The translations under genes were made by a program, and so were the position numbers. From the NCBI GenBank assembly GCA_046537785.1, contig JBKHKD010000002.1, positions 71,082 through 135,081 on the forward strand: a stretch of 64,000 nucleotides of DNA, in the 5' to 3' direction. Under the pieces are notes generated by a model. That model was not told where the DNA came from. It worked only from the letters and a program-made list of their open reading frames with translations, and ran no database searches. Numbering within the stretch: position 1 is the first letter of the stretch; each line of letters opens with the position of its first letter. This document shows, one piece after another, positions 28,993 to 59,754 of this stretch. The stretch comes from Actinomycetota bacterium. Lineage in GTDB: Bacteria > Actinomycetota > Acidimicrobiia > Spongiisociales > ZC4RG35.

Positions 28993-29010
28993 TTAGAGGA
29001 CAGATTTCTC

Positions 29011-30201: not shown

Positions 30202-30215
30202 GGAAGGGGCCAGCA

Positions 30216-39150: not shown

Positions 39151-40655
39151 TCGGGCCCGGCCAGATCGCCTTCGGCAAGTCGGGTTGCAATCGACAAGAC
39201 TCGTTCTGAGGTCACCTGCACCGGCTGGTCTGCTCCGACCAGGAAGCCAACAGGTTCCTTCGGCAGATCGGCGATGACCGTGCACTCCATGATCGCGCGC
39301 ATGGCATAGACATTCGTAGGTTCGTCCGGTCCGTCACATCCTCCGGGAATCCTGTAGGCGAGAAGGGCGCCGAGACGCTCGGCTATGTCGGCGTTGCTCC
39401 AGGTTTCTGAGGGGGACCCGACCTGTCCTCCCTCGCCGGTGCCGTGGTCGCCGGCGATGAGCACGGCGACATCGCGATCCAGGCTTGCAACGACATCCAG
39501 AAGGAGCGAGTCGACACATGAGAGTTGTTGGCGCAGGCGGTGATAGTCATCATCTGAGTCTGGGCGGGTTTCCGTTGCCACCACTTCGCATTTGGAGTCT
39601 ACGACGTACGGGGCATGAGGCAGGAACATGTGGGCGAATACCACATACGGTTCGTCATCGTCGAAGGCGTCGAGATTCGCGAGATGGTCGACTACGGGGA
39701 TGGTGTTGACTGCTGCCATCGAACCGTGTCTCTCCTCGATGATGTCCGCAAAGATGCTGGGCGCTAAGAGGTTCCAGTTGGCTTCACTCAACCAGGAGCT
39801 CTCAAGACATACGTCGGCACGGATACATGTTGACCCATCCCAACCACCCTCGATGTGGATGTATTGGAATCCGGCACTCCGCAGCGTCTCAACGACGAGA
39901 TTCTCTCCCCCGATTATGTCGTAGCTGCTTCGACGGTTACCCCATTGTCCCTTCGGAGAGTCGTCTGCTATCTGGTTTAGTTGAAGGATGCTGGGCACCG
40001 CAAGGCCGGTGAATGTGTTGTGGGACCATGAGACTTCGGGAACCTCGAACCCAGCTTCCATGAGGCCTTCTTGGAGTGGTTCGGTGTCGTGTCCGAACCA
40101 CTGGTCCGCGACCGACAACATGGGATAGCCATCAACGATGAGCACGAGAACATCTTCGACAGCCTCGGTGGGTCTCGCATCGACTGAGGAGTGGGCCTCG
40201 GATAGCGGGTAAGGGACACGGTGCGACACGTGCTGCGTTACGACCTGGAGCGCGGGAGCAAGCAGCGTCAAGGCCAGAATCACAACCACGAGATAGGTGT
40301 TGGTTCGATCCGAAACAGCCCAGTGGAGAAGTGCCCCAACCGCAGCGACCAAGACGAGCCACACGACTCCGGGTACCAGGAGAGTGGTGTGATAGTTGAG
40401 CAGGACGAAGAGGGTCCCGAAGACGATGAATCCGGCCGGGATCTGCCGGACTTCGAACGCGATCAAGGCGAAGAACACCAAAATGCCAATCGCCAACCCG
40501 ATCGACGACGTGAGGAAAACGTCCAAGGGGTTGGCGAGATCCCATGGATTCGCAGCCCAGAAGACGAGCGGCCTATAGAAGCTCCCTGCCACGACAAGCG
40601 AGATTCCCATCCATATCCGCTTTGTCTTCGATCGCTCGCTTCTCACGTTTCTCAT
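39147..40655 (-). CDS. Membrane-anchored alkaline-phosphatase-superfamily enzyme (sulfatase/LtaS/phosphodiesterase-like), paralog 1
   Basis: Four or five N-terminal TM segments plus an extracytoplasmic domain with [28 protein letters not shown] and IAGDHGT. Confidence 0.7.
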
Positions 40656-40705
40656 CCGACTCCATCGTTGAGAATCAGTCTCACCCCCTCGCTACTCTGC
40701 GGAGA

Positions 40706-42712
40706 GTGCCCCGATTCGAAGTGGTATCCGACTTTCAGCCAGCCGGCGATCAACCTAGAGCCATCGACTCGCTCGCCACGGGACTTGAGCGCGGCGACCG
40801 CTATCAGACCCTCCTTGGCATAACCGGGTCGGGAAAGTCAGCAACAATTGCATGGACGATCGAGAGGGTCCAGAAACCCACCCTGGTCCTCGCTCCCAAC
40901 AAGGCGCTGGCGGCACAGCTCGCCAACGAGTTCCGCCAGTTCTTCCCCAGCAACCGGGTCGAGTACTTCGTCTCCTACTACGACTACTACCAGCCGGAGG
41001 CGTACATCCCCCAGACCGACACTTTCATCGAAAAGGACGCCACCATCAACGACGAGATCGACCGGTTGCGTCACTCGGCCACCGCGGGCCTGCTGGTTCG
41101 GGACGATGTGATCATCGTTGCCTCGGTGTCGGCGATCTACGGCCTGGGGTCGCCAGAGCAGTACGAAGGACAGCTGCTAAGGCTCGTCCAGGGCGTCGAG
41201 TATCCGATGCAGGAGGCGATCAAGCGTCTCGTCGACATCCAGTACGAGCGCAACGAGGTGAACCTGGTTAGGGGCAAATTCCGGGTGAAGGGAGACACCC
41301 TGGAGGTCTTCCCTTCCTACGAAGAGACCATCATCAGGGTCCAGTTCTGGGGCGACGAAGTGGAGCGCATCGTCCGGCTCAACCCGGTCACCGGAGAGGT
41401 CGTCGAGGAGATGTCGGAGCTGTTCATCTTTCCGGCCACCCACTACGTGACCGAGCGGGAGCGGCTGCTGCGAGCCATCGCTGGCATCGAGGAGGAGTTG
41501 GAGGAGCGGCTGGTCGAGTTGGAGAAGAGCGGGAAGCTGCTGGAGGCGCAGCGGCTTCGCATGCGCACCAACTACGACCTGGAGATGATGCGGGAGGTCG
41601 GATTCTGCTCCGGCATCGAGAACTACTCACGGCATCTCGACGGTCGTAATCCCGGTCAGGCCCCCTACACCTTGCTGGACTACTTCCCCGACGACTATCT
41701 GACGGTCATCGACGAGTCCCACGTGACGGTGCCTCAGATCGGGGGCCAGTACGAGGGCGACCGTTCGAGGAAGGAAGTGCTGGTCGACCACGGGTTCAGA
41801 CTCCCTTCGGCGAAGGACAACCGGCCGCTTCGTTTCGACGAGTGGCTGGAGCGGGCCAACCAGGTGATCTTCATGTCCGCCACGCCGTCCGATTTCGAGG
41901 TCAGCCATTCCACCCAGGTGGTCGAACAGATCATCAGGCCCACCGGCCTGGTCGACCCCGAGGTGCGGATCAAGCCCACTAAAGGCCAGATCGACGATCT
42001 GCTGGACGAGATCAAGGAGCGTGCCCTCAAGGAGCAGAGGATCCTGGTCACAACCCTCACCAAGAAGATGGCCGAAGACCTCACCGACTACCTGTTGGAG
42101 ATGGGGGTCCGGGCCCGATACATGCACTCGGAGATCGACACCCTGGAGCGTGTCCAGATCATGAGGGAGCTTCGTCTGGGGGAGTTCGACGTGCTCGTCG
42201 GTATCAACCTGCTGCGTGAGGGACTCGACCTACCGGAGGTGTCCCTGGTGGCCATCCTCGATGCCGACAAAGAGGGCTTCCTCCGCTCAGAGACCTCACT
42301 CATCCAGATCATTGGTCGTGCCGCCCGAAATGTCGACGGCCAGGTGGTCATGTATGCCGACGACATAACCGACTCGATGCAGCGCGCCATCTACGAGACC
42401 AACAGGCGTCGGCAGGCGCAGCAGGAGTGGAATGCCGAGCATGGCATCGATCCTCAGACTGTGCGCAAGAGGGTCTCCGACATCCTCGAACTGGTTCAGA
42501 CTGATGCCCCCTCGGCTGATAGACGGAGGAGAGAGGTCGAGAAGCGGGCGCCACTCGATCTCGAGGGAGAGGACCTGGCACGTCTCGTCATGAGTCTCGA
42601 AGAGGAGATGCACGAGGCGGCCAAAGACCTTCGGTTTGAGTATGCGGCTCGATTACGAGACGAGGTGAACGAACTGAAGCGGGAGTTACGCGAGGTAGCG
42701 GAGGCGGGCTGA
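40706..42712 (+). CDS. uvrB: Excinuclease ABC subunit B
   Basis: [20 protein letters not shown], Walker A GITGSGKS, helicase motifs and a C-terminal UVR domain. GTG start 40706; the upstream part of track ORF 40544 overlaps the divergent gene. Confidence 0.95.
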
Positions 42713-42957: not shown

Positions 42958-44532
42958 TCAGCCGGCGTCATTCTGTAGGAAAGGTTCCATCCTGACAATA
43001 GGTCCACCGAACCCCGCCGCGTAATGACGTGTATCGAGTGTCGGGATTGGCTTTCCTGAGAGACACGACATGACCTCCCGGAATATGTTGACGGTAGTGA
43101 TGTCGTCAGGAAGCTCGCCGCGGCACGGCTCAGGAAGGCGGACGGCGCTTATCGTCGAGAATCGTTCTCTCAGTGCCGCATCAGGATTCTTGGAATCTAG
43201 AACCCAGTAGGAGTCTGGTCCGTGATCAGAGAGGATCACTACGATGGCGTCTGGGTCTACCTGACTCAGAAACGCTCGAAGGGTCTGGTTTGCGCATCGA
43301 ACTTGGTCCACCCACGCGTCTCGACGACGTTCCAACTGTTCCTCGGACATGTTTCCATCGTTCATGATGCGACCACCGAGATCAGGGTTGATACGCAAGT
43401 CGCAGTCGGCGTCCAGGAACAGCGGAGGATGTGGCAATGGAATGTGCAAGAAGACGAATTTCGGCGGCCCACGGCGCCAGTCCCTGACGAAGTCGTTCCA
43501 GTGTTCTAGCTGATCGATTCTCGCCAGGTTCAGGGCTGTCGTCGGGTTGTTGGCTTCCGGGTAGAAGAGACCGCCCGCCGGCGTGTTGAGGAGCAGCGCG
43601 TGTCCGGTGATGTCGAGGCCTGGACCAGGCACGCAGATATCGACCTCACCACCGCATTGGTTGTGCCAGTGGTCAGCTTCGGCATGTATGTACGTGTAGC
43701 CATTCGCTTTCAAGAGATTGACCAGGTCATTCTCACCAGCGACTTGACTCGCCAGATATGCGAGGTCTCGATTAGCGAACTCTGCTCCCTCTTGGTGTAC
43801 ATACGACATATTCAAGAGAGCGGGGAGCGAAAAGTGTGTGACTGAGTAATTGGCGACCGACTCGCGGGCGACATCGAATCCCAGGGCTCGGAGGTCATTT
43901 AGGAACGGCTCGTTGTCGTAGCCATAGAGATCTCGAATCACATCGGATCTCCCGTACCCGTCGAGAACTATCAAGACGATGTCTGGCTTCTCGACGAGCG
44001 TTTCGATCTCGATCGGTGTCTGGACACCTACCGATCGTTCCGGAGCCAGGATCGTGCTCGTCGCCGCATACAGCGACAGCGCTCCCGAATATGCCACAGA
44101 AATCACGAAGACGAGAAGCTTGAAGTAGTGCTGGTTGCCATACTTGATTGCCGCTGACAACACGAGTAGGAACACGATTAGGGATGTCGCGGCAGGATCA
44201 AGAGGACCGAAACCCTCTCCAGCGGACCAATGCCAGAAGGAGAGCAGCGTGACAGAAACTGCGGCGAGCGCCCTCCAGCTGGACACATCACGACGGGCAA
44301 ACGGAAGATACAGCCCTGTTGAGATGACGGTGAGTGCGGTACCGATGATGAAAACGCCCTCCACTGAAGCAAGAGCGGCCTGAGTGCCAGTCATGACAGC
44401 CAAGGGGCGATGGAACGACAGGGCGGTCAACTGCAAGAGAGCCCACCAAAGCGAAGGGCGAGCCCGGCTGGTTAATGAAGAGCCAACTCTCGCTGGTGGT
44501 GCGAGAGACTTCCGGTTACCCGCGACAGTCAT
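42958..44532 (-). CDS. Membrane-anchored alkaline-phosphatase-superfamily enzyme, paralog 2
   Basis: N-terminal TM segments; KPDIVLIVLDGYGRSD, SVTHFSLP, FVFLHIPLPHPP and ILSDHGPDS. Noticeably lower GC. Confidence 0.7.
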   Translation of the reverse strand: MTVAGNRKSLAPPARVGSSLTSRARPSLWWALLQLTALSFHRPLAVMTGTQAALASVEGVFIIGTALTVISTGLYLPFARRDVSSWRALAAVSVTLLSFWHWSAGEGFGPLDPAATSLIVFLLVLSAAIKYGNQHYFKLLVFVISVAYSGALSLYAATSTILAPERSVGVQTPIEIETLVEKPDIVLIVLDGYGRSDVIRDLYGYDNEPFLNDLRALGFDVARESVANYSVTHFSLPALLNMSYVHQEGAEFANRDLAYLASQVAGENDLVNLLKANGYTYIHAEADHWHNQCGGEVDICVPGPGLDITGHALLLNTPAGGLFYPEANNPTTALNLARIDQLEHWNDFVRDWRRGPPKFVFLHIPLPHPPLFLDADCDLRINPDLGGRIMNDGNMSEEQLERRRDAWVDQVRCANQTLRAFLSQVDPDAIVVILSDHGPDSYWVLDSKNPDAALRERFSTISAVRLPEPCRGELPDDITTVNIFREVMSCLSGKPIPTLDTRHYAAGFGGPIVRMEPFLQNDAG

Positions 44533-44640
44533 GCGTTTCTATTCTGATAGGGAACCATCAAGGAAACTGGCGATTCGGTCGTTAGAGAGTTTGGTGAGTT
44601 TCGGGATCAGGCCACGTTTGTTGCCAACCAGGGAGATCTG

Positions 44641-45951
44641 ATGGTGGAGCCGAGTCCGACGAACGACGTCGTTTACGTGGCGATGAGTGCAGACATCGTG
44701 CACCCCGGCCACATCAATCTGCTGGACAGAGCCGCTGAGCTGGGCCCGGTCACTGTCGGGCTGCTGACTGACGCAGCGATCGCCAGTTATAAGAGGCTGC
44801 CGCTGATGACTTATGAGGAGCGTCGTGCCGTCGTGGCACAGTTGCGACAGGTGAGTGAATTGATTCCGCAGGAGACCTTGGATTACGAGCCCAATCTTCG
44901 AACCCTGAGGCCGCGTTATGTCGTTCATGGCGACGATTGGCGGGAAGGGGTGCAGGCAAAGGTTCGCCAGCGGGTGATCGAAGTGTTATCCGAATGGGGA
45001 GGCGAGCTAGTCGAGCCCCGCTATACGCCAGGGATCTCCTCGACGAGGGTTCATCAGGCTCTGCTCGAGGTGGGGACCACTCCTGACATTCGCCGACGCG
45101 CCCTTCGCCGGCTTTTGGCCGTGCAGCCGATGACGCGAGTGTTGGAAGCGCACAACGGGTTGACTGGGCTCATCGTTGAACACACCACGGTCACTCAGGC
45201 CGAACGCCAGGTGGGTTTCGACGGTATGTGGCTCTCCAGCCTGACGGATTCGACGATCAAGGGGCGACCGGACACCGAGTACGTGGATCTGACGTCTCGA
45301 AGTGCCACTCTCCAAGAGATCCTCGAGGTCACGACGAAACCGATCCTCTATGACGCGGACACCGGCGGTCTCATCGATCACTTTCAGCTCAAGGTCAAGA
45401 CCCTGGAGCGTCTTGGAGTGTCCGCTGCAGTCATCGAAGACAAGGTCGGGCCGAAGAAGAACTCGCTCTTTGGCACCGATGTCGACCAAACCCAGGACGA
45501 TACCGCCTCGTTCGCTGAGAAGATCCGGGCTGGCAAGGAGGCTCAGGCTACCGAGGATTTCATGGTGATTGCCCGGATCGAGTCGCTGATCCTGGGAAAA
45601 GGTGTGGGCGACGCCCTGGAACGAGCGAGGATCTACGAGGAAGCCGGCGCCGATGCCCTCCTGATTCACTCCCGTGACCCGGACACCTCAGACTTGTTCA
45701 AGGTCCTGGGCGAGCTCGCCGGGTCGATTCCGCTGGTTGCAGTCCCATCTGGCTACTCGCATGTCTACGAGGACGCGCTCTCCCAAGCAGGAGCCTCCCT
45801 CGTCATCTATGCGAACCATCTGTTGCGGGCCGGGTATCCGGCGATGGTCGCCACGGCCAGCTCCATCCTGGAACACGGTCGCGCCAAAGAAGCCGAAGAA
45901 TGCTTACTTCCGATCAGCAACGCTCTCGAGCTCATCCCAGGTAACCGATGA
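44641..45951 (+). CDS. ppm: Bifunctional cytidylyltransferase / phosphoenolpyruvate phosphomutase fusion
   Basis: N-terminal roughly 130 aa TagD-like cytidylyltransferase ([19 protein letters not shown] … VHGDDWREG). C-terminal PEP mutase ([49 protein letters not shown]). Confidence 0.85.
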
Positions 45952-47057
45952 TCGAGGGCCAGGAGGCCATCCGGCTGTTGGAAGGGGCGGGGGCACGACT
46001 GTTCGTCGGAGTGCCCGATTCGCTCATGAAGGGCTTTTGCAGTGCCCTGGGTGACCATCGAGGTCCGGGTCGTCATGTGGTGGCCGCCAACGAGGGAGGG
46101 GCGGTGGCGACTGCGGCGGGCCATTATCTGGCGACAGGACGGCCGGCTGTGGTCTACATGCAGAATTCCGGCTTGGGAAACGCAGCGAGCCCCCTCGTCT
46201 CGCTGGCGAGCCGGCGGGTTTATGGGATCCCGATGCTGCTGATCATCGGATGGAGGGGTGAGCCCGGGACCGTGGATGAGCCGCAGCATGATCACCAGGG
46301 TGATATCACGACTCAGCAGCTCGAGCTTTTGGAGATATCGATATCGGTGGCGGAGCCCGACGACGATGGTTCCGTGTTCGTAGCTGCATACGAGAGGGCC
46401 CTGTCGGGTCAGGTACCCGTGGCAGTTCTGGTCCGCAAAGGAGTATTCGTTCCGCCACCCGAGATCGCTCCCGGTGGCGGATTGACACGGATGTCTGCGA
46501 TGGAGATGCTTCTCCAGCAGCTTCCGACAGACACCGCCTACGTAGCGACAACCGGATACACGGGACGCGAGTTGGCCCTCCTCCGCGCGAAGAGGGAAGA
46601 GAGTTGGTCCTCGGATCTGCTGATGGTGGGATCGATGGGACACGCCGCAGCGATCGCGCTCGGCATCGCCGTAGGGACCCCCGGACGACTCGTTTGCTGT
46701 TTCGATGGAGACGGAGCCGTGGTGATGCATATGGGGACGCTCGCCGCCGTTGGCGCCGAGCAACCTGCGAATCTCCTCCACGTGGTCATGAACAATGGAG
46801 TCCATGAGTCGGTTGGGGGACAACCGTCGGCTCTGAGGGATGCCGACATCCCCGCTTTGGCGCGCAGCTTGGGTTATGTCAGCGCGGAGGTAGCGACAGA
46901 TAAGGACGAATTGGCCAGCGCCGTCGACCGTCTTCACACAGATTCCGGCCCGAATCTGATCGAGGTGAGGATCAGTTCCGGGACGGTGGACGGCTTGCCG
47001 CGACCGTCGAGTCTCCGTGAGCGTGTCGTCGACATGAGGGATTGGTTGAGTGGCTGA
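45948..47057 (+). CDS. ppd: Phosphonopyruvate decarboxylase (ThDP-dependent)
   Basis: 369 aa; ThDP-binding [13 protein letters not shown]…NNG. ATGA-coupled to ppm. Confidence 0.8.
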
Positions 47058-48165
47058 GGTAACCCGAGGCATTGGCGCGCTCGAGACAAGCTTCAGGTCA
47101 GTCGATGGTTCGCCGTGGATCGTGATGAGTGGGAGGACTTCTTTCTCCGCGTCAGGCGCAGAGGCTTCTCTCGAGGATTTCCTCCAATCGGGGGCCAGAC
47201 GCCTGGTTGTCGAAGGGCCGCTTCCGACGACCGACGAGGTCGACCGTCTGGCGGCGGAGGTCGGGTCGAGTAGACCGCGAGCCATACTCGCCGTTGGGGG
47301 CGGACTGGTCATCGACACGATGAAGGCGCTTGCTCTTGCCCTGAGCACAGGAGGGAGTGCGCAGTCATTGCTCAACGGGAGCGCCGTACCGAGCGATGTC
47401 GAGATCCACACAGTTGCTGCCCCCACGACGGCCGGCTCAGGGGCAGAGCGCACGCCATTCGCGGTGCTGTACCACGATGGTGTCAAGCACTCGGTCGACG
47501 ATCCTCGTCTTCTACCGGATCATTCAATAATCGACCCGGCGTTGAGCAGTTCGGCACCTCGCCACGTGGCAGCCTCTGCGGCACTCGACGCTTTGGCTCA
47601 CTCCGTCGAGTCGATGTGGGCATGCCGGTCGACCGTCGAATCTATTGAGGTTGCGGCTCAGGCCCTAGGGCAAATCGTGGACAACATCGAAACTGGCGTT
47701 GTGGGTGAGTCGGCCCCTGCCCGGGAGACCCTCATGTATGCGGCTTCGGACGCGGGCTCCGCCATCGCGGTGTCGAGGACCACCGCGGCCCACGCCCTCT
47801 CGTACCACCTCACCGCTCGACATGGCGTACCTCATGGCCACGCCGTGGCGCTCATGTTGGGACGGGTCATTGCTTTCAACGGTGAAGTCGACGAGTCAAC
47901 CGTGCTTGATCAGCGCGGTCTGGCCCACGTAGCGTCCGTCGCAGCGCGGATCTCTGCTCTTCTCGGCATCGATGAACCGGTCGACGCCCCAGAGCGATTG
48001 CGTGACCTCGTCGCATCGCTGGGTTTGGCGCCGCGAGCGGATGAGGCGGCAGGCGCCATGGTCGATAGGGAGCGATGGATGACTGAAGTGAATGAGCAGC
48101 GACTCGGCAACAATCCACGACGTATCAACCGTGACGATCTATTAGCAATCGTGTGTGACGCATGA
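47050..48165 (+). CDS. Group III iron-containing alcohol dehydrogenase, putative phosphonoacetaldehyde reductase (PhpC/FomC-like)
   Basis: Fe-ADH fold (AVGGGLVIDTMKA … His-rich metal ligands ALAHSVESMWACRSTVESIEVAAQALGQIVDN…AAHALSYHLTARHGVPHGHAV). The GTG start overlaps ppd. Confidence 0.7.
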   Translation: MAEVTRGIGALETSFRSVDGSPWIVMSGRTSFSASGAEASLEDFLQSGARRLVVEGPLPTTDEVDRLAAEVGSSRPRAILAVGGGLVIDTMKALALALSTGGSAQSLLNGSAVPSDVEIHTVAAPTTAGSGAERTPFAVLYHDGVKHSVDDPRLLPDHSIIDPALSSSAPRHVAASAALDALAHSVESMWACRSTVESIEVAAQALGQIVDNIETGVVGESAPARETLMYAASDAGSAIAVSRTTAAHALSYHLTARHGVPHGHAVALMLGRVIAFNGEVDESTVLDQRGLAHVASVAARISALLGIDEPVDAPERLRDLVASLGLAPRADEAAGAMVDRERWMTEVNEQRLGNNPRRINRDDLLAIVCDA

Positions 48166-49316
48166 GAAAACTTCTCGAGCGCACCCGTCTGGCCATGGCG
48201 GAATCCAACAACATGGGCAAGTTGCTCACCCTCCCCAATGATGACCGTGCGGTCGTTGTCTACGCCGAAGATACGTTTAGCTACATCCAGCTCAAGGGAT
48301 ACCTGCGTGCCCTCTGGGTGAACCACGGGGTGCCTTATCAATACGTGACCTCGGCTCCCGATGATCCTCTTCTCGAAGATCCTCCCCCCGGGGCCACCAC
48401 CTGGTTCATTCGCGAACAACTGGCACGGATGATGAGCTCACTCGAGTGTGGCATCTTCATCACAACCATGCCCGATCTGGGAAACTTCCAGGTTCCCCGG
48501 CCGAAGTCTGGGAGGGCTTTGTATGTCTTCCACTCGCTCAACAGCACTCATACCGCCTATCGCTCTGGCGCATTCGACAACTATGACCAATTCATGTGCA
48601 CGGGACCGCATCACATCGAGGAGTTGGGTCGACTGCGGCCCGACTCGAATCCGGTGCTTTCTGAGGTGGGCTACTACAAGCTCGACCTGATCAGGGAAGA
48701 ACACGCAGATTGGCTTGAACGTGACGCGATCGAGGAGGATCTCGTCCTCCTTGCCCCATCGTGGGGGCGCCATAATCTTCTCGAGGCACACGGAAGTGAG
48801 ATCATCGCCTCGCTGGTAACTTCCGGTTTCCGGGTGATCGTCCGGCCCCATCCGCAATTCTTTCACTCGCTCTATCCCGAAGGCGCCGGGGTGATCGGGC
48901 GCCTCCAAGAGGAGTTTGGCGTCGACCATTCGGTCGAATTCGAGCTCAACATCGACTCTCAAGACTCATTCCATCGCAGCGCCCTGATGATCAGCGACTG
49001 GTCCGGTGCCGCCTACGAGTACGCGCTGGGGACACATCGGCGGGTCCTGTTCATCGATACCCCACAGAAGATCTTCAACCCGGGCTGGGAGCAGATCGGT
49101 CTCGCCAGCTTCGAGGGAGAGATGCGAGACCAGGTGGGTGAAGTGCTGGCCACCGATTCGGTGCATTCCACCGGGAACGTTGCCTACGACGTGATCCGAC
49201 GAAGCCGCTACTCCCGCTCCGACCTCGCGGAATTGGCGAGCCAAAAAATCTTCAACCTGGATGAGAGCGCCAGGGTCGGTGCCGAAGTAATCGCAGATAC
49301 CCTCTCTCGCTCATGA
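48162..49316 (+). CDS. TagF/TagB-like CDP-alcohol phosphotransferase family protein
   Basis: LLAPSWG (compare the TagF YAPTWR motif), VIVRPHP and ISDWSGAAYEYA (compare DYSS). ATGA-coupled upstream and downstream. Confidence 0.6.
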   Translation: MRKLLERTRLAMAESNNMGKLLTLPNDDRAVVVYAEDTFSYIQLKGYLRALWVNHGVPYQYVTSAPDDPLLEDPPPGATTWFIREQLARMMSSLECGIFITTMPDLGNFQVPRPKSGRALYVFHSLNSTHTAYRSGAFDNYDQFMCTGPHHIEELGRLRPDSNPVLSEVGYYKLDLIREEHADWLERDAIEEDLVLLAPSWGRHNLLEAHGSEIIASLVTSGFRVIVRPHPQFFHSLYPEGAGVIGRLQEEFGVDHSVEFELNIDSQDSFHRSALMISDWSGAAYEYALGTHRRVLFIDTPQKIFNPGWEQIGLASFEGEMRDQVGEVLATDSVHSTGNVAYDVIRRSRYSRSDLAELASQKIFNLDESARVGAEVIADTLSRS

Positions 49317-50860
49317 CTTTCCGAGACCCGGATCTGTCCGTGCCTCCGCGGCGGCTTCACTGGGTGGACTTTGCCCTCATCGCGATACCGGCCTTCCAAT
49401 TGCCACTTTTGGTCGTCGCTGAGAATGGTATCGGTATTGGACATCCGGAGCTTCTGTTGTTCTTCGGCGGTCTGGTATGGGGGTTAGGAGCGCTCATTCT
49501 CGTTGTCGTGCGCCGGCTCGGTGTCCCTGGCTCGGTCTCGGTACTCGGAGCGTGGCTCTGTGTCTACCTGTTCATGAACACTGGGGCGATTCCCGATAGG
49601 TTCGGATATCCACTCGGGCTGCTCGTGACTCTCGGGACTCTCACCATCTTGCTCTATCTGGTGTCTCAGAGGCCAGAGATCCGTAGTCGGCTCGTCCTAG
49701 GTCTAGCGAGTGTCCTGCTGCTGGCCGAGATACTCATCACCGGGTATGCGACCTTCGCCGACTTTGGGGAAAGTCGGGTCGCTTCTAGTCCGAGCTCGGT
49801 CGACGTCGAACTCGAGCAGAAGCCCGACGTGGTGATGATCATTGCGGACGCTTACGCGGGCGTAGATGGCTTGAGTCGATATTTCGACGTCGATTCACGA
49901 GTGAAGAACACGTACTCGATGAGCGGATTCTGGGTTCCAGACTTGGCATTCTCTCCATACGCAAGTACCGACACCGCACTCTCGACGATGCTGGACATGA
50001 GCTATCCCCTTACTGCCGGACCGGGCATAACTCGTGCGACAAGGCGGGATCTGTACAGGCTGATCGGAGGCGACAACCGCGTGGTCGATGTCTTTCGACA
50101 AAACGAATACCAGGTCACCATGATCGAATCCGGTTGGAGCGGATCGACCTGTGGTGATGTGATCGATACCTGTCCGAGCCCATTTATCGATGAGAGTGTT
50201 TATATCATGCTCGCCGAGACTTGGATTGGCGATCTCGTCCTAGACAGGTTTGGCTACGCGTTCACGGTGGGTACTCGGTCGTCGATGTCATGGCTGGATG
50301 ACAATCTCGTCGAACTGGCGACCGACGAGAAGCCGGACTTCGTTTTTGCCCATCTCGGTATACCGCATCCACCAATGTTCCTCGACTCGGATTGTGAGCT
50401 GCAGGTGACCCCGGACCGGAACGGTGTGACCATGCAGCGACGAGACGTTCCAACCGACGACAGGAAGAAGCTCTATCTCGAGCAGGCAGCGTGTGTCGAT
50501 TCGTTCGTCACGTCACTCGCCGACTCATTGCCGAATGATGTTGTGTTGATACTGACCGGCGACCATGGGACCGACTCGCACCACCAACTGGCAGAGCATC
50601 CGGAGGATTGGTCGACTGACATGATTCGCGAACGATTGAACACGATGTTTGCCTTTCGCGGTCCCGAGGAATGCCGACCGCCCGAGCCCGTTCTCACGGC
50701 CGACCTCTTCCGGCATCTGTTCACCTGCCTGAGTGACGAATCATTGCCGGTGCCACCGCAACAGTTGTACATCTATGCCGCTCTGGAGATCGATGGGGCA
50801 CCCTCACCGATCGTCGAGGTGGAGCCATCGGTGATCGCTGAACTTGTCGGTGGGAGCTGA
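49313..50860 (+). CDS. Membrane-anchored alkaline-phosphatase-superfamily enzyme, paralog 3
   Basis: N-terminal TM segments; KPDVVMIIADAYAGVDG, FVFAHLGIPHPPMF and ILTGDHGTDS. Last gene of the phosphonate operon. Confidence 0.7.
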   Translation: MTFRDPDLSVPPRRLHWVDFALIAIPAFQLPLLVVAENGIGIGHPELLLFFGGLVWGLGALILVVVRRLGVPGSVSVLGAWLCVYLFMNTGAIPDRFGYPLGLLVTLGTLTILLYLVSQRPEIRSRLVLGLASVLLLAEILITGYATFADFGESRVASSPSSVDVELEQKPDVVMIIADAYAGVDGLSRYFDVDSRVKNTYSMSGFWVPDLAFSPYASTDTALSTMLDMSYPLTAGPGITRATRRDLYRLIGGDNRVVDVFRQNEYQVTMIESGWSGSTCGDVIDTCPSPFIDESVYIMLAETWIGDLVLDRFGYAFTVGTRSSMSWLDDNLVELATDEKPDFVFAHLGIPHPPMFLDSDCELQVTPDRNGVTMQRRDVPTDDRKKLYLEQAACVDSFVTSLADSLPNDVVLILTGDHGTDSHHQLAEHPEDWSTDMIRERLNTMFAFRGPEECRPPEPVLTADLFRHLFTCLSDESLPVPPQQLYIYAALEIDGAPSPIVEVEPSVIAELVGGS

Positions 50861-51289
50861 AGAGCTTGGACTTGACCACGGCGGTCTGACGTAAGGGCGC
50901 TACCTAGGGCACGCGGTCTACAAGATCCATCCGGATCATAGGTTCCCCCTGTCGCATGGGGTGTCTGCCGGGAGATACCCATCCCTTTGGGCGACCTGAG
51001 CAATAGGACGGCCACCCGGCGGATCGGTTCACACAGGATCCTCCGGCCAGCTGGCGTCAGCGGAGCGTTAGCGCGCATGACAAGCCTCCTTTTGGGTGTT
51101 GGTTGCGTGCAAGCACCGCACAACCAGGGAGGCTCAAACCCTCACAACGTCAACAACCTCTCTTAATCAGAACACCTAGCCGTTCTTGAGCGTGAGCCCG
51201 GGCTGTGGACAGGAGTGCAGGAAGCGGGATTGCTTCATGGGTGGAAGAGTCCTTTGGAAACAAGGGTTCCCGTTCGATAATGACGAGTT

Positions 51290-52672
51290 GTGAACAAGTT
51301 GTCCGTCCTCATGCCCGTCTACAACGAGTCGCGCACCTTGCGGACGATTGTCGCCAAGGTGCTTGCCTCACCGGTCGACGCTGAGATCGAGTTGGTCTGT
51401 GTAGATGATTGCTCGAAAGATGATTCTCTTGCGATTCTTCACGAGCTGGCAGAGGCCGATTCCCGGATCAGGGTCATTGCCCAGTCGGTGAACTTGGGCA
51501 AGGGCAAAGCGATCCGTACCGCTATCGGGCACATGACCGGCGATGTCGGGATCATCCAGGACGCCGACTTGGAGTATGACCCGAATGAGTACCCGCTCGT
51601 TCTGGCGCCGCTCCTGGAAGGACGAGCCGACGCAGTGTACGGCTCCCGGTTCGCCTCCAGCGAGCAGCGTCGTGTCCTCTTCTTCTGGCACGCGCTAGGC
51701 AACAAGCTGCTCACGCTCATGTCGAATATGGCCAACGACCTCAATCTCACCGACATGGAGACCTGCTACAAGGCGGTTCGCGCCGACGTTCTCAAGGAGC
51801 TTCGACTCACCAGCGACCGGTTCGGGCTTGAGCCGGAGATCACCGCTCGCCTCGCCCAGTGGGGCGCCCGTATCTACGAGGTGCCGATCAGTTATCACGG
51901 ACGCACCTACGCCGAAGGCAAGAACATCGGTTGGAGAGACGGAATGGAAGCACTCTGGCTCATCTTTAAGTTCCGGCTTCTCGACACTCGAGCGACGAAC
52001 GAAGACTCGGTCGTCACGAGGCAGAGCCTGGGGAGTGCCCCCCGCTTCCGCCGCTGGATCCTGTCATCGTTTGACGACTACCTGAGAGACACCGTGCTCG
52101 AGATCAATGCCGGGCCGGGGCACACTACTAGCCATCTGCTCGACGCAAGGAGACTGATCGTCTCTGATGAGGAGCTGGTCCACGTCGAATCGCTGCGTCG
52201 TCGTTTCGGTCACTTGGAGAACGTCGAGGTGATGACGAGCGAAGAGTTGGATCACTCAGACGTGCGGGTCTCGTCGGCTCTGGTGTTCGACGGGTTACAA
52301 CGTGCCGGCGAGCCCAAGGAGTTCTTGGCCTCGGTAGCGTCTCATGTCGAGTCGGGCGGTCATGTTCTCATCCAGGTGCCCGCGGGCCCTGAGCTCTTCG
52401 GACCCACCGACAGGGCCGCTGGGCATGTGAAACGCTTCGACCGCCAAGATATCGAAGATGTCGTTCGCGCCGCCGGGTTGGAGCTCGTGGATATTGCCGA
52501 GGTGAACCGTCTCGGAGCCCTCGGCTGGAGGCTCCATCATTGGCTGGGGAAGGGGCGCATCACGACGTCGGAGGCTCGTCTCTTCGACCTCCTGGTTCCG
52601 CTGGTACGCTCGCTCGACCCCATCTTCCCCGGCCGTGGCCTCAGTCTGCTGGTGGTGGCTCGATCGCCTTGA
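51290..52672 (+). CDS. GT2 (DPM1/GtrB-like polyprenyl-phosphate glycosyltransferase) fused to a C-terminal class-I SAM methyltransferase-like domain
   Basis: LSVLMPVYNE, CVDDCSKD and IQDADLEYDP (GT-A DxD), then VLEINAGPGHTT, a Rossmann-type MTase motif I. Confidence 0.7.
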   Translation: MNKLSVLMPVYNESRTLRTIVAKVLASPVDAEIELVCVDDCSKDDSLAILHELAEADSRIRVIAQSVNLGKGKAIRTAIGHMTGDVGIIQDADLEYDPNEYPLVLAPLLEGRADAVYGSRFASSEQRRVLFFWHALGNKLLTLMSNMANDLNLTDMETCYKAVRADVLKELRLTSDRFGLEPEITARLAQWGARIYEVPISYHGRTYAEGKNIGWRDGMEALWLIFKFRLLDTRATNEDSVVTRQSLGSAPRFRRWILSSFDDYLRDTVLEINAGPGHTTSHLLDARRLIVSDEELVHVESLRRRFGHLENVEVMTSEELDHSDVRVSSALVFDGLQRAGEPKEFLASVASHVESGGHVLIQVPAGPELFGPTDRAAGHVKRFDRQDIEDVVRAAGLELVDIAEVNRLGALGWRLHHWLGKGRITTSEARLFDLLVPLVRSLDPIFPGRGLSLLVVARSP

Positions 52673-52743: not shown

Positions 52744-53484
52744 TTGCGTTGGGAGCACGCAATGTATCGAAATCTGAGAGTCATGGGCTTAGTACCTGTG
52801 CTCGATGAGGAGAAGAAGGTCGGTCTCGTTCTCGAGCGAGTCCCCACCGACGTCGTCGACCTGACCCTGGTGATCGATGACGGATCGACCGACGCCTCAG
52901 CTCAGGTAGCGCGCTCCAAAGGTGCCAAAGTGATCGAACTCGGGGCCACTGTCGGTGTCGGAGCAGCGATCAGGACCGGGTTCCAGTACGCGATCGCAGA
53001 AGGGTTCGATGTGGTCGTCGTGATGGCGGGAAATAACAAGGACTCCCCGGAGGAGATCCCGCTGCTCTTGGACGAATTGACCGATCGCCCGGCGGACTTG
53101 GTTCAGGGCTCCAGATGGTCGGGCGATGCTAGTGACTTCGGAGAGATGCCGGCCTATCGCAAGGTGGCCACACGCCTTCACCCGATGCTGTTCAATCTCA
53201 TCTCCCCCGTCAAGCTGACAGACACGACCAACGGCTTTCGGGCTGTCCGTACCAGCCTCCTCGCCGATGAGGACCTGAATCTCGATCAGAGCTGGCTCGA
53301 CGACTACGAACTCGAGGTCTATCTGCTCTATAGGGCGGCCCAGCTCGGGTACGAGCTCTCCGAGGTCGGCGTCACCAAGAGATACCCTCCGAAGGCATTG
53401 GGGCAGACAAAAATGAAGCCGATATCGGGATGGTGGTCGATCCTTCGTCCGCTGGTTCTGCTGGCCGTACGGCTCAAGAGGTGA
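52744..53484 (+). CDS. GT2 family glycosyltransferase (DPM1-like)
   Basis: LVIDDGSTD and VVVVMAGNNKDSPEE…LVQGSRW. Confidence 0.75.
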   Translation: MRWEHAMYRNLRVMGLVPVLDEEKKVGLVLERVPTDVVDLTLVIDDGSTDASAQVARSKGAKVIELGATVGVGAAIRTGFQYAIAEGFDVVVVMAGNNKDSPEEIPLLLDELTDRPADLVQGSRWSGDASDFGEMPAYRKVATRLHPMLFNLISPVKLTDTTNGFRAVRTSLLADEDLNLDQSWLDDYELEVYLLYRAAQLGYELSEVGVTKRYPPKALGQTKMKPISGWWSILRPLVLLAVRLKR

Positions 53485-53499
53485 GGAAGTGACTCGAAA

Positions 53500-54531
53500 A
53501 TGATGACAGGAATCGGAGTCGTGGGTGCCGGTCATTGGGGTCCCCACCTGATACGAAACTTCAACGATCATCTGTCCAGTCAGGTCCTCTGGGTAGCGGA
53601 GAGGGATGAGCGTCGCAAGAAGGGCATCTCGGAACGGTTTCCGGGGACGGCAGTCACTGCTGATGTGGATGAGATTCTGTCGGATGACCGGGTCGATGCC
53701 GTCATCGTGGCGACACCGACTTCTACCCACGCTGCGATTGTTCAAGATGCGCTGGAAGCCGACAAGCACGTACTAGTGGAAAAGCCCATCGCCTATGGTC
53801 TTGAGGACTCCATCGCCCTTTGCGAGATGGCCGACAGCCGAGGTCTCACGTTGATGGTGGGGCACGTGTTCCTGTTCAACCCAGCGTTCCGTGCCGCACG
53901 GGATTACATCCACCGGGGCGACTTGGGGCTCATCAGATACCTGTCAATGGTTCGTACCAATCTGGGTCCGGTTCGCACCGACGTGAACGCTGCTTGGGAC
54001 TTGGCCAGCCACGACGTTTCCATCGCGAACTATTGGCTGGATGCGCTGCCTAAGAGTGTCAGTGCAAGAGGAGGGAGTTGGCTGAACGAAGGGATCGACG
54101 ACGTCGTCTTTGCGACTCTCTCCTATCCGGATGATGTGCTCGTGCACATCGAAGCTTCGTGGCTGAATCCGAGAAAGCGACGTCTGGTGGCGGCTATCGG
54201 GTCTGATCGCATGTTGACGGTGGACGACATGGATCTGAACGAGCCAATTCGCCTTTATGACAAGGGGGTCCTAGAGCGCCCGAAGGAGGACTTCTCTGAT
54301 ACCTTCGCCGGTTTCCGCAATCAGATCAGAGAGGGAGAGGTGCGTATCCCCCATGTCACCGGAGGCGAGCCCTTGCGAACCGAGTGTGACGAGTTTTTGC
54401 GCCGCATCGCGGGCAGCGATGACACCCTTTCCGATGGATGGGAGGGAGCACGGGTCGTCGCGGTACTCGACGCGATTGACCGATCGATCGTTGAGGGCGG
54501 TGCCTCCATCGTCGTGGAGAAGATTCGATGA
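53500..54531 (+). CDS. Gfo/Idh/MocA-family NAD(P)-dependent sugar oxidoreductase (WbpB-like)
   Basis: GIGVVGAGHWGPHLIRNF Rossmann motif plus a Gfo/Idh/MocA C-terminal domain. Confidence 0.85.
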   Translation: MMTGIGVVGAGHWGPHLIRNFNDHLSSQVLWVAERDERRKKGISERFPGTAVTADVDEILSDDRVDAVIVATPTSTHAAIVQDALEADKHVLVEKPIAYGLEDSIALCEMADSRGLTLMVGHVFLFNPAFRAARDYIHRGDLGLIRYLSMVRTNLGPVRTDVNAAWDLASHDVSIANYWLDALPKSVSARGGSWLNEGIDDVVFATLSYPDDVLVHIEASWLNPRKRRLVAAIGSDRMLTVDDMDLNEPIRLYDKGVLERPKEDFSDTFAGFRNQIREGEVRIPHVTGGEPLRTECDEFLRRIAGSDDTLSDGWEGARVVAVLDAIDRSIVEGGASIVVEKIR

Positions 54532-55631
54532 AGGTTCCCCTGGTCGATCTGGCCTGGCAACACCGGCAGATCGCGGATGAGGTCGAGCGGGGCCTGCATG
54601 AGGTGATGGAGACCACTGCCTTCATTCACGGGCCACAACTACATTCGTTCGAGGAGGCGTTCGCGTTGTTTCTCGGAGTCGAGCACTGTGTCGGTGTGGG
54701 GAGCGGGACCGATGCCCTCGAGTTGACGGTGAGAGCCCTCGACATCGGGCCCGGAGATGTCGTTGTGGTCCCGGCCAACAGCTTCATCGCCAGCGCCCTC
54801 GGCATCCTCCGGGCCGGAGCCGACGTCGTCCTGGTCGATTGCCATCCCGACACCTACCTGATGGACGTGGCGCGGGTGGCCGACCTCATCGACTCCAAGG
54901 TGAGGGCGATCATGCCCGTCCATCTCTACGGTCAGATCGCGCCGATCGAGGACATGCCCGACTTGCCTGAGAGGGTGGTGGTCATCGAGGATGCCGCGCA
55001 ATCGCAAGGAGCCACCCGTAACGGGGAAGGGTCAGGCTCGTTCGGTGTGGCGGCTGCGACGAGCTTCTATCCCGGTAAGAACATCGGGGCCTACGGCGAC
55101 GGGGGGGCGGTGCTGACGGACGATGACGCCCTCGCCGCCCAGGTGAGGAAGTTGGGCAACTGGGGGTCGGCCGAGAAGTACCACCATCCCGAGTTGGGGT
55201 TCAACTCCCGACTCGACACCGTTCAGGCGGTCATCCTCCAGGCGAAGTTAAGCCGCCTCGCGGAGTGGAACGGGATGCGCCGCGCCGCCGCCGAGTGGTA
55301 TCGAGAGGCTCTCCACGACGTGGAGAAGGTGTTGCTTCCACTCACACTGGAGGGGAACGAGCACATCTGGCATCTCTTCGTGATTCGGGTACCAAACCGG
55401 GATGCGGTGTTGGCGCGGTTACATGGGCGTGGTGTGGGCGCCGGCATCCATTATCCGGTTCCAATGCACCTCCAGGGAGCGCTATCTGATCTGGGCTATC
55501 GCAGAGGTGACTTTCCGGTAACAGAGAGAGTTGCCGGTGAGATCCTTTCACTGCCCATCTACCCGGGCATCACCGAAGCCCAGCAACAGTACGTGGTCGA
55601 GTCCCTGAAAGAGGCATTGGCGTTCTCCTGA
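54528..55631 (+). CDS. DegT/DnrJ/EryC1/StrS-family PLP sugar aminotransferase (WbpE-like)
   Basis: VPLVDL…, GVGSGTDAL and the family Lys region; 367 aa; ATGA-coupled. Confidence 0.9.
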   Translation: MKVPLVDLAWQHRQIADEVERGLHEVMETTAFIHGPQLHSFEEAFALFLGVEHCVGVGSGTDALELTVRALDIGPGDVVVVPANSFIASALGILRAGADVVLVDCHPDTYLMDVARVADLIDSKVRAIMPVHLYGQIAPIEDMPDLPERVVVIEDAAQSQGATRNGEGSGSFGVAAATSFYPGKNIGAYGDGGAVLTDDDALAAQVRKLGNWGSAEKYHHPELGFNSRLDTVQAVILQAKLSRLAEWNGMRRAAAEWYREALHDVEKVLLPLTLEGNEHIWHLFVIRVPNRDAVLARLHGRGVGAGIHYPVPMHLQGALSDLGYRRGDFPVTERVAGEILSLPIYPGITEAQQQYVVESLKEALAFS

Positions 55632-55632
55632 C

Positions 55633-56199
55633 ATGGCCACGGACTATTTCGCCCACCCCACTGCTCTGGTCGAGACCGACGACGTCGGTTCGGGGAGCAG
55701 AGTCTGGGCTTTTGCCCACGTGATGGAAGGTGCGATCCTAGGACGGCATTGCAAGGTCGGAGACCATTCGTTCATTGAGGGCGGTGCGTCGCTGGGTGAT
55801 CGTGTGACTGTCAAGAACGGGTGTCTCATCTGGCACGGAGTACACATCGGCGACGATGTCTTCGTTGGTCCGAATGTCGTGTTCACCAACGACATGAGAC
55901 CTCGGGTTCGGTATCAGACGACTTCTCAGGAATGGCTGGACACCGAGGTAGGGGAGAGAGCTTCAATCGGGGCGAACTCGACGATCCTCTGCGGAATCCG
56001 CATCGGACGCAACGCGATGGTCGGGGCGGGGTCCGTCGTAACCAAGAGTGTGAAAGACCACGCCATGGTCGTGGGCAATCCGGCCCGACAGGTCGGCTGG
56101 GCGTGTGACTGCGGTGAGTCTCTCGATGGGGACCTTACATGTGCGGCATGCGGCCGCTTCTATCGAAAGGGCTTGAAGGGTTTGGAGGAAATCGAATGA
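55633..56199 (+). CDS. Hexapeptide-repeat (left-handed beta-helix) sugar N-acetyltransferase (WbpD-like) with C-terminal Cys4 ribbon
   Basis: Hexapeptide repeats (IGDDVFVGPNVVFTND…) and a CDCGESLDGDLTCAACGRFY tail. Confidence 0.8.
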   Translation: MATDYFAHPTALVETDDVGSGSRVWAFAHVMEGAILGRHCKVGDHSFIEGGASLGDRVTVKNGCLIWHGVHIGDDVFVGPNVVFTNDMRPRVRYQTTSQEWLDTEVGERASIGANSTILCGIRIGRNAMVGAGSVVTKSVKDHAMVVGNPARQVGWACDCGESLDGDLTCAACGRFYRKGLKGLEEIE

Positions 56200-59625: not shown

Positions 59626-59754
59626 CGGAGGGACATAAAAGCGCGTGATCTCTTCCGACGACCGACATATCAGTCGTGCAGTTGTTAGGATCAGAACATG
59701 TGTTCGAAGGTGATGCGCATTACACTTGCGTAACTTCCGACCACCAGGCGAGCT

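Follow-up and report, generated by a model that had tools for sequence, protein, structure and literature searches.

A stretch of 64,000 nucleotides (nt) from an Actinomycetota bacterium (contig JBKHKD010000002.1, positions 71,082 to 135,081; the whole stretch is termed the window) carries a phosphonate locus at positions 44641–50860 on the + strand. The five open reading frames of this locus, genes 1–5, very probably make 2-hydroxyethylphosphonate (HEP), activate it with cytidine monophosphate (CMP) and put it on the cell envelope. Gene 1 (44641–45951) encodes a bifunctional protein of the Fom1 type, with a predicted HEP cytidylyltransferase domain at amino acid (aa) positions 9–144 and a phosphoenolpyruvate (PEP) mutase domain at aa positions 155–435. 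Gene 2 (45948–47057) encodes a phosphonopyruvate decarboxylase (Ppd) and displays the family TIGR03297 and the TPP_enzyme_N/C domains. Gene 3 (47050–48165) encodes a group III Fe/Zn alcohol dehydrogenase (ADH), a predicted phosphonoacetaldehyde reductase in the role of PhpC or FomC. Gene 4 (48162–49316) encodes a 384 aa transferase of the TagF fold, which belongs to the GT-B class of glycosyltransferase folds, and is a predicted CMP-HEP:acceptor 2-hydroxyethylphosphonyl transferase. Gene 5 (49313–50860) encodes a membrane-anchored protein of 515 aa from the alkaline phosphatase (AlkP) superfamily. It has an architecture of the EptA/LtaS type and is a predicted extracytoplasmic HEP (phosphonyl) transferase.

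Neighboring open reading frames overlap by 4, 8, 4 and 4 nt, and the letters at the junctions are, in order, cgATGAtc, GTGGCTGA, gcATGAga and tcATGAct. The coordinates and junctions confirm the five coupled genes with 4–8 nt overlaps that were described in an initial annotation of this DNA, and 44641–50860 is a genuine five-gene operon. The phosphonate locus is not due to chance, because the open reading frames are long, the profile matches are strong and the synteny is kept in other genomes.

Predicted synthesis and activation of 2-hydroxyethylphosphonate

The gene 1 product matches PF01467 at aa positions 17–139 (53.6 bits, cut-off 21) and PF13714 at aa positions 156–410 (164 bits). With TIGR02320, the PEP mutase equivalog of NCBIfam, it scores 353.4 bits, above the cut-off of 319.55. 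When the catalytic residues of PEP mutase (Ppm) were checked, the EDKxxxxxNS motif was found at aa positions 266–275; this motif sets Ppm apart from its isocitrate-lyase relatives (PMC6697681). A fusion with PF01467 is carried by 23.6% of Ppm proteins (PMC6697681).

The N-terminal domain has the HxGH motif, present as HPGH at aa 21. Amino acid positions 9–144 show 95 identities out of 136 (70%, E-value = 1e-60) with the cytidylyltransferase domain of Fom1 (PDB 5x3d). Weaker structure matches are to ECT (2e-15) and TagD (1.8e-7), and the match to TIGR01518 has an E-value of 1.8e-9. The Fom1 domain is reported to turn HEP and cytidine triphosphate (CTP) into CMP-HEP (Cho 2017, as cited in PMC6697681). 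The high identity to Fom1 thus supports the initial proposal that the fused domain serves in CMP activation. Close homologs of gene 1 are labeled by JGI as ‘phosphoenolpyruvate phosphomutase / 2-hydroxyethylphosphonate cytidylyltransferase’. A protein-database search with the Ppm fusion for a cultured carrier yielded metagenomic sequences only. The locus contains no other cytidylyltransferases and no CDP-glycerol genes.

Gene 2 passes the equivalog model TIGR03297 (395.4 bits, cut-off 312.5) and has both thiamine pyrophosphate (TPP) domains, PF02775 and PF02776. A 559 aa antisense open reading frame (45807–47486, − strand) extends across the ppd and adh genes and is a high-GC artefact; antisense open reading frames opposite ppd are also found in two other loci.

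Gene 3 displays PF00465 (Fe-ADH) and PF25137 (ADH_Fe_C), and its metal-site D/H motifs align with those of solved Fe-ADHs. Its top-scoring NCBIfam model is TIGR03405, the phosphonate-associated Fe-ADH. Enzymes of the PhpC type are reported to be very divergent (PMC13576164). Of the 31 related loci described below, at least 24 have an ADH gene after ppm-ppd, as does every complete related cassette. This position is a stronger argument for the role of gene 3 than its model score.

A route from PEP to CMP-HEP is well supported as a prediction for genes 1–3. Ppm would convert PEP to phosphonopyruvate, Ppd would convert this to phosphonoacetaldehyde, and the Fe-ADH would yield HEP. The cytidylyltransferase domain of gene 1 would then join HEP and CTP to form CMP-HEP, a phosphate-phosphonate anhydride that is isosteric with a CDP-alcohol. 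The part of this route that leads to HEP had been proposed in the initial annotation, and it holds with the equivalog cut-offs of TIGR02320 and TIGR03297 both passed.

Gene 4, a putative TagF-fold transferase

Gene 4 gave no Pfam or NCBIfam match at E ≤ 0.01. Its homologs are numerous and mostly unannotated; some have weak or faint PF04464 matches and a few are named CDP-glycerol glycerophosphotransferase family. Many are labeled ‘YidC/Oxa1 family membrane protein insertase’ by JGI. This label looks like a propagated misannotation, because the gene 4 protein has no predicted membrane helix.

An AlphaFold (AF2) model of gene 4, built from 31 family members, has a predicted local distance difference test (pLDDT) score of 94. 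A Foldseek search of the PDB with this model places Staphylococcus epidermidis TagF at all of ranks 1–12 (E-value ~1e-12). The next GT-B matches have E-values of 5e-8 or higher, i.e. more than four orders of magnitude behind TagF. PDB sequence searches with gene 4 and with its family profile gave nothing usable. A canonical PF04464 protein from an archaeal-looking locus (L038) was used as a bridge for the alignment of gene 4 with TagF. The bridge protein matches TagF with an E-value of 5e-28 (phmmer) and the gene 4 family profile with an E-value of 2.7e-5 and a probability of 74.5% (hhalign).

By way of the WHG and R(x)H histidines of the bridge protein, the family-invariant histidines H124 and H230 of gene 4 fall on H444 and H584 of TagF. 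H444 is the catalytic base of TagF and H584 is its second conserved histidine (PMC10901376). The alignment is transitive, and the equivalence of the two pairs of residues is proposed with moderate confidence. The gene 4 motifs VGYYKLD, APSW and SDWSGA align with GYPRND, APTW and TDYSS of TagF, and the motifs that are invariant in the gene 4 family are YxFHSLNSxH, APSW, RPHP and SDWSGA.

The residues that follow the catalytic histidine differ. Glycerol is bound by P447 and L448 in TagF and ribitol by the residues GAF in TarL (PMC10901376). In gene 4 the loop H124-S-L-N-S replaces H444-G-T-P-L of TagF, and the Asn-Ser pair is invariant in the family. Gene 4 is a bare GT-B domain after one helix (aa positions 2–22) and has no extra N-terminal domain. 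In this family such a domain is a feature of the polymerases (PMC10901376), and thus gene 4 is more likely to add single units than to make a polymer. Gene 4 is predicted to act as TagF does, as a phosphotransferase that releases CMP, but with a changed donor pocket; at the Pfam level it lies outside PF04464. The TagF-like transferase of the initial annotation is therefore supported by the predicted structure and the bridging alignment, and not by Pfam.

Gene 5 and its paralogs

Gene 5 matches PF00884 (Sulfatase) with 28.4 bits (cut-off 25). Its structure model (pLDDT 90) displays six N-terminal helices at aa positions 12–149, followed by a sulfatase-fold domain. In a Foldseek search, full-length EptA, PbgA and MCR-1 rank first, and the fold comparison by itself does not tell LtaS/EptA types from sulfatases. 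The family alignment keeps D179, T219, H347, P-H352-P, D417-H418-G and six cysteines. The T219 position, the putative nucleophile, is Thr or Ser in at least 90% of the family, and D179 and D417-H418 are putative metal ligands. A Thr/Ser nucleophile is typical of the EptA, LtaS and MCR-1 transferases.

The window encodes two further paralogs. One, of 524 aa (42958–44532, − strand), is divergent from the operon, matches PF00884 with 41.7 bits and is 28% identical to gene 5 (E-value = 1e-43). It is found in the same divergent position in L004/L006, L007, L026 and L036. The other, of 502 aa (39147–40655, − strand), lies beyond uvrB and has a 24% identity to the 42958–44532 protein (BLASTP, E-value = 1e-30). 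Aligned with family A2, it retains the D, T, H..PH.P and DHG columns as well as the six cysteines. It has about four N-terminal hydrophobic helices and only faint matches to PigN and Phosphodiest. This open reading frame overlaps the listed uvrB open reading frame (40544–42712) by 112 nt, and the uvrB start is probably listed too far upstream.

All three paralogs have exactly six Cys in the C-terminal domain. The C/SxPxR formylglycine motif of formylglycine sulfatases and phosphonate monoester hydrolases is absent from all three catalytic domains; the pattern occurs only at aa 9 in gene 5 and at aa 488 in the 39147–40655 paralog. For lack of this motif, an identity of gene 5 as a formylglycine sulfatase was rejected.

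The catalytic domain of gene 5 is placed outside the cytoplasm by the five to six membrane helices that precede it and by its six conserved cysteines. A catalytic domain outside the cytoplasm cannot use CMP-HEP directly, and the earlier suggestion that the AlkP-superfamily protein uses a CMP- or CDP-activated donor is thus withdrawn. For enzymes with the architecture of EptA, LtaS and GacH, a membrane lipid is the source of the head group, which they hand on outside the membrane.

Conservation of the cassette in other genomes

A motif-based scan with one genome per species, in which divergent relatives would be missed, found the TagF-like family at 31 loci, all of them in metagenome-assembled genomes (MAGs) and from about nine lineages (Acidimicrobiia, other Actinomycetota, Gaiellaceae, Acidobacteriota/Terriglobia, Planctomycetota, Vulcanimicrobiota, Xenobia, Myxococcota, Chloroflexota, and one Alphaproteobacterium). 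Cassette genes at these loci were counted by tblastn with the window proteins, plus clustering. The cytidylyltransferase-Ppm fusion lies beside the TagF-like gene in 26 of the 31 loci (25 by tblastn, L021 by clustering). Ppd and ADH genes adjoin in nearly all of the 26, and the remaining five loci all end at a contig edge.

A membrane-anchored PF00884 gene is present beside the cassette in 22 of the 31 loci, and in 12 of the 15 that have at least ~8 kb on both sides. Two PF00884 subfamilies occur in this position: the type found in the window and a second, better-scoring one (60–128 bits).

Close relatives of the window locus (L004/L006, L008, L025, L036) share the position between uvrB and uvrA, the divergent AlkP gene, a gene for a glycosyltransferase family 2 (GT2)-methyltransferase fusion and one AZOBR-like gene. 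With this common uvrB-uvrA position, the phosphonate block is a stable feature of the lineage and not a recent island.

Two loci show the core with other transferases. In the archaeal-looking L038 (8001–12849), the cytidylyltransferase-ppm/ppd/adh core is followed by the canonical PF04464 protein that was used as the bridge. In L039 (8001–12521), an exopolysaccharide locus, the same core is followed by a CDP-alcohol phosphatidyltransferase-like protein. The system is thus modular, with a CMP-HEP core and an exchangeable transfer module.

A polytopic DUF6020 protein is encoded near the TagF-like gene in five Acidimicrobiia/Actinomycetota loci (L013, L015, L017, L019 and L020; e.g. L019, 11357–12985), and directly downstream of it in L013, L019 and L020. 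In L003, from an Acidobacteriota MAG, a PhnD-like phosphonate-binding protein (2824–3744) and several extra sulfatase-fold genes adjoin the cassette, which hints at phosphonate uptake or turnover beside synthesis.

Surrounding genes in the window

The phosphonate block of the window is located between uvrB and uvrA (59755–62577). A divergent intergenic region of 108 nt (44533–44640) separates gene 1 from the 42958–44532 AlkP paralog and is presumed to be the promoter region for both. No sigma-70-like consensus was found in 44533–44640. Promoter and terminator scans over the region gave sites no commoner than in shuffled sequence, and Rfam and tRNA scans of the locus gave no match. Downstream of gene 5 there is a non-coding gap of 429 nt (50861–51289), also with no Rfam match; its sole promoter-like site, at 51254–51281, is at chance level.

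The gap is followed on the + strand by genes of the glycan type. The first (51290–52672) encodes a GT2 protein, similar to polyprenyl-phosphate-sugar synthases, fused to an S-adenosylmethionine (SAM) methyltransferase (PF00535 and PF13489); its best NCBIfam models (AglJ, PgfS, ArnC, PpgS) are all under cut-off. This fusion is found directly after the cassette in L004–L008, L025 and L036. A second GT2 of the polyprenyl-phosphate-sugar-synthase-like type (52744–53484; PF00535; AglJ, PpgS and DPhHxTase-like) is absent from related loci. Three further genes were identified by Pfam/NCBIfam matches: a GFO/WbpB-like 3-dehydrogenase (53500–54531), a DegT/WbpE-like aminotransferase (54528–55631) and a hexapeptide/WbpD-like acetyltransferase (55633–56199). 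This set (53500–56199), for a 3-acetamido sugar nucleotide, is a window-specific accessory that is present in none of the related loci.

Two paralogous polytopic proteins (56139–57299 and 57349–58452) are AZOBR_p60025-like, a family annotated with ‘cell surface glycopolymer formation’ (NF046093, 128 and 103 bits, cut-off 150). They have a 41% mutual identity and 6–9 hydrophobic segments, and one copy follows the GT2-methyltransferase gene in close relatives. The last gene before uvrA (58438–59796, − strand) encodes a polytopic membrane protein of 452 aa with about six hydrophobic segments. It has no Pfam or NCBIfam match and, from its position, may belong to the phosphonate system.

The glycan-type neighbors of the initial annotation are thus present: two GT2 proteins, the GFO/WbpB-like, DegT and hexapeptide acetyltransferase proteins and the polytopic membrane proteins. 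The glycan that had been deduced from them is a putative acceptor of HEP. None of the related loci has the WbpB/E/D-like genes or the second GT2. The sole neighbors that accompany the cassette elsewhere are the GT2-methyltransferase fusion and the AZOBR_p60025-like protein, and they do so only in close relatives.

The window has no 2-aminoethylphosphonate (AEP) transaminase and no antibiotic tailoring genes, in agreement with the initial annotation. No class-V (PhnW-type) aminotransferase is present in the window, and its sole aminotransferase is the DegT-type sugar enzyme. The DegT gene was rejected as an AEP transaminase: it belongs to a sugar-aminotransferase family and is absent from related cassettes. 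A search of 28–64 kb of the window and of the larger open reading frames of 1–28 kb found no Fom3 radical-SAM/B12 methyltransferase, Fom4 epoxidase, FomD, HepD/MpnS, nonribosomal peptide synthetase (NRPS), ATP-grasp protein, ligase or resistance gene.

The rest of the window contains housekeeping genes (DnaE, PolA, S1), a Tad pilus locus and two-component systems. The Tad/Flp-type pilus genes (28063–35798) encode RcpC/CpaB, a ParA-like ATPase with a receiver domain, a T2SSE ATPase, a VWA-T2SSF fusion (31568–33523), a second T2SSF protein and a 448 aa polytopic protein with no family match. A LuxR-type response regulator and a HisKA_3 histidine kinase are encoded at 36410–38547 (− strand) with a 16-nt overlap; such a pair likewise adjoins the phosphonate locus in L036.

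Proposed mechanism and alternatives

The core of the proposed mechanism, in which HEP is converted to CMP-HEP and transferred by the TagF-like enzyme onto a membrane-bound acceptor, is considered likely. The fold, the catalytic residues and the gene linkage suggest that gene 4 acts at the inner face of the membrane, with H124 as the base in the manner of TagF H444. A hydroxyl of the acceptor would attack the phosphonate phosphorus of CMP-HEP, and CMP would leave to give acceptor-O-P(O)(O−)-CH2CH2OH. This would be the TagF reaction with a C–P bond in place of the C–O–P bridge. By analogy, a lipid or a lipid-linked sugar may serve as this acceptor, a membrane-bound carrier.

The full reading adds a relay through the AlkP-type enzymes to the envelope, and it is given a probability of about one half. 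After flipping of this putative carrier, the three EptA/LtaS/GacH-type paralogs would, again by analogy, take HEP onto the conserved Thr (T219 in gene 5), and the phosphonyl-Thr intermediate would deliver it to one or more envelope polymers outside the membrane. A phosphonate monoester resembles the phosphodiester substrates of AlkP-type enzymes in charge and geometry. In the lineage of the window, the GT2-methyltransferase and AZOBR_p60025-like proteins probably supply or build the polymer.

Several observations weigh against the core and the relay. Among the domains expected in the initial annotation, PEP_mutase, CTP_transf_like, TPP, Fe-ADH and Sulfatase were found and PF04464 was not; gene 4 scores 11.1 bits against this family (E-value = 0.18), below the gathering score of 22.1. 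The donor loop of gene 4 is unlike that of every characterized TagF-like enzyme. Gene 3 reaches 145.2 bits with TIGR03405 (Phn_Fe-ADH), far under the cut-off of 423.7. The organisms with the TagF-like family are all uncultured MAGs, and the chemistry is a prediction. Lastly, no sulfatase-fold gene lies near the cassette in L016, L027 and L029, all of which have long flanks, or in the archaeal-looking L038, which shows that the AlkP partner is frequent but not obligatory.

The cassettes that lack a nearby AlkP partner are consistent with a shorter, one-step pathway: the TagF-like enzyme would attach HEP in the cytoplasm to a glycan precursor that is lipid-linked, and the product would leave by ordinary export. 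The AlkP enzymes would then not be HEP transferases but hydrolases or remodeling enzymes, with roles in phosphonate-ester trimming or phosphorus recycling, or transferases for ordinary lipid head groups. The PhnD-like protein and further sulfatase-fold genes of L003, with their hint of turnover or uptake, are in line with such functions. On the other hand, two unrelated membrane-anchored PF00884 subfamilies recur beside the cassette across phyla, and in the window translational coupling joins one AlkP gene to that for the TagF-like enzyme. Thr or Ser fills the nucleophile column and there is no C/SxPxR motif, as in transferases of this architecture such as EptA, LtaS and MCR-1. The one-step pathway appears rather unlikely.

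In a second alternative, the pathway would end with a phosphonolipid or glycolipid of the membrane that has an HEP head group, and not with a decorated polysaccharide; the TagF-like enzyme would esterify HEP to a lipid hydroxyl. TagF-like enzymes work on membrane-bound acceptors (PMC10901376), the minimal cassette occurs in distant phyla with no nearby glycosyltransferase (L001/L009, L016, L027), and the CDP-alcohol phosphatidyltransferase-like gene of L039 would be a lipid-type solution. However, an extracytoplasmic AlkP-type enzyme often accompanies the cassette, which points to one more transfer, and in the lineage of the window the cassette is fixed beside the GT2-methyltransferase and glycopolymer-formation genes. 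In addition, HEP is known on actinomycete exopolysaccharide and on marine high-molecular-weight polysaccharide (PMC8942020, PMC9381506). An HEP lipid as the end product is thus judged distinctly improbable.

The free hydroxyl of HEP could in principle let the TagF-like enzyme polymerize CMP-HEP into poly(HEP), a C–P analog of poly(glycerol phosphate) teichoic acid, with the AlkP-type enzymes as LtaS-like extenders or ligases. This is very unlikely, as the bare 384 aa GT-B protein differs from polymerases with their additional N-terminal domain (PMC10901376), and no such polymer was found in the available literature.

Two readings of the cytidylyltransferase-Ppm protein have hardly any weight. 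Genes 1–3 match Fom1, Fom2 and FomC of Streptomyces, with the high identity to the Fom1 domain already given, and the locus might accordingly make a diffusible phosphonate natural product, fosfomycin-like or other, with the transferase-like genes serving another pathway; however, no Fom3, Fom4, FomD, MpnS/HepD, NRPS, ATP-grasp or resistance gene is present in the locus or the major window open reading frames scanned, and the TagF-like gene lies within the operon and is inherited together with genes 1–3 across phyla. A fosfomycin-like antibiotic cluster was rejected, as the tailoring genes were not found. Alternatively, the fused cytidylyltransferase could make CDP-glycerol like TagD, which is also a PF01467 protein and gives the weaker matches noted above (together with TIGR01518), so that the TagF-like enzyme builds an ordinary glycerol-phosphate unit and HEP is handled separately; this was rejected on the 70% identity to the HEP-specific domain of Fom1 (E-value = 1e-60), and the glycerol-binding Pro-Leu loop of TagF (PMC10901376) is replaced by the invariant Asn-Ser in the gene 4 family.

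The route from a nucleotide-activated phosphonate to a cell-surface molecule has been called enigmatic (PMC6697681). The window and its relatives give two enzyme candidates for the transfer, a small soluble TagF-fold protein and an EptA/LtaS-type membrane enzyme, and both are conserved with a Fom1-type CMP-HEP synthase. The product itself would not surprise specialists; the value of the locus is in these candidates for the transfer steps. If the assignment of these enzymes is right, the YxFHSLNSxH family would be a metagenome marker of HEP-decorated envelopes. If it is not right, the locus is still a sound, unremarkable example of a phosphonoglycan or phosphonolipid cluster. A wider proposal is tentative and more doubtful than the relay mechanism: the YxFHSLNSxH TagF-fold family and its AlkP-type partners may be the missing ‘phosphonyl tailoring’ transferases, forming a two-stage relay via a lipid-linked phosphonate and a covalent Thr intermediate in at least nine lineages of mostly uncultured bacteria. 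This would amount to a teichoic-acid-style pathway rebuilt around a C–P compound, and it could be a source of environmental high-molecular-weight HEP esters.

Comparison with known systems

Parts of this picture have been published. These are the presence of HEP on actinomycete exopolysaccharide (Yu 2014, as cited in PMC8942020 and PMC13576164), CMP-HEP formation of the Fom1 type and the prevalence of nucleotidyltransferase-Ppm fusions and of nucleotidyl phosphonate activation (PMC6697681), and the occurrence of sulfatase-like genes close to phosphonate clusters (PMC8942020, PMC9381506). A sizeable pool of marine organic phosphorus consists of polysaccharide esters of HEP and methylphosphonate (PMC9381506). 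No description was found, in an available literature that leaves the primary phosphonoglycan-cluster papers outside it, of a TagF-fold family with a remodeled donor loop tied to an HEP core across phyla, nor, within the same limits, of the recurrent pairing of this family with membrane-anchored AlkP-type enzymes.

The Fom1-Fom2-FomC segment of the Streptomyces fosfomycin pathway has the same PF01467 cytidylyltransferase-Ppm fusion, Ppd and Fe-ADH, and the same CMP-HEP intermediate (PMC6697681). The window differs in having no Fom3, Fom4 or FomD, and CMP-HEP is predicted to be a group-transfer donor and not a transiently protected intermediate.

In the HEP phosphonoglycans of Glycomyces and Stackebrandtia, HEP is described as esterified to an extracellular polysaccharide, and the pepM cluster includes an ADH of the PhpC type (as presented in PMC8942020 and PMC13576164). 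In contrast to this, the TagF-like family was found by the motif-based scan, which would miss divergent relatives, only in MAGs and not in these genera. Glycans of the Glycomyces type reportedly have O-methylated sugars and an HEP-glycerol ester, features that would suit the GT2-methyltransferase fusion and an enzyme of the TagF type.

Gene 5 is comparable to EptA/MCR-1, LtaS/LtaP, GacH, BcsG and EptC, and to the non-catalytic PbgA; it has structural matches to all of these and shares with them a helical membrane domain and an extracytoplasmic sulfatase fold, together with a Thr at the putative nucleophile position and a putative DH metal motif. GacH puts glycerol phosphate on a wall polysaccharide, and it may be regarded as the nearest functional analogy for gene 5.

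Gene 4 shares with TagF, TagB and TarL the GT-B fold, both catalytic histidines, the GY..D, AP(S/T)W and (S/T)D(W/Y)S motifs, a monotopic membrane logic and the CMP leaving group. Unlike these enzymes, it is under the Pfam threshold, has NS(x)H in place of the polyol-binding PL/GAF loop, has no polymerase N-terminal domain and has a predicted CMP-phosphonate donor.

The PntC and LicC-LicD systems, for AEP and phosphocholine, display the same logic of nucleotidyl activation, often by a domain fused to Ppm, followed by transfer to a surface glycan (PMC6697681). The phosphonate locus would follow this logic with different components: PF01467 instead of PF12804, HEP instead of AEP, and a TagF-fold protein together with AlkP-type enzymes instead of LicD.

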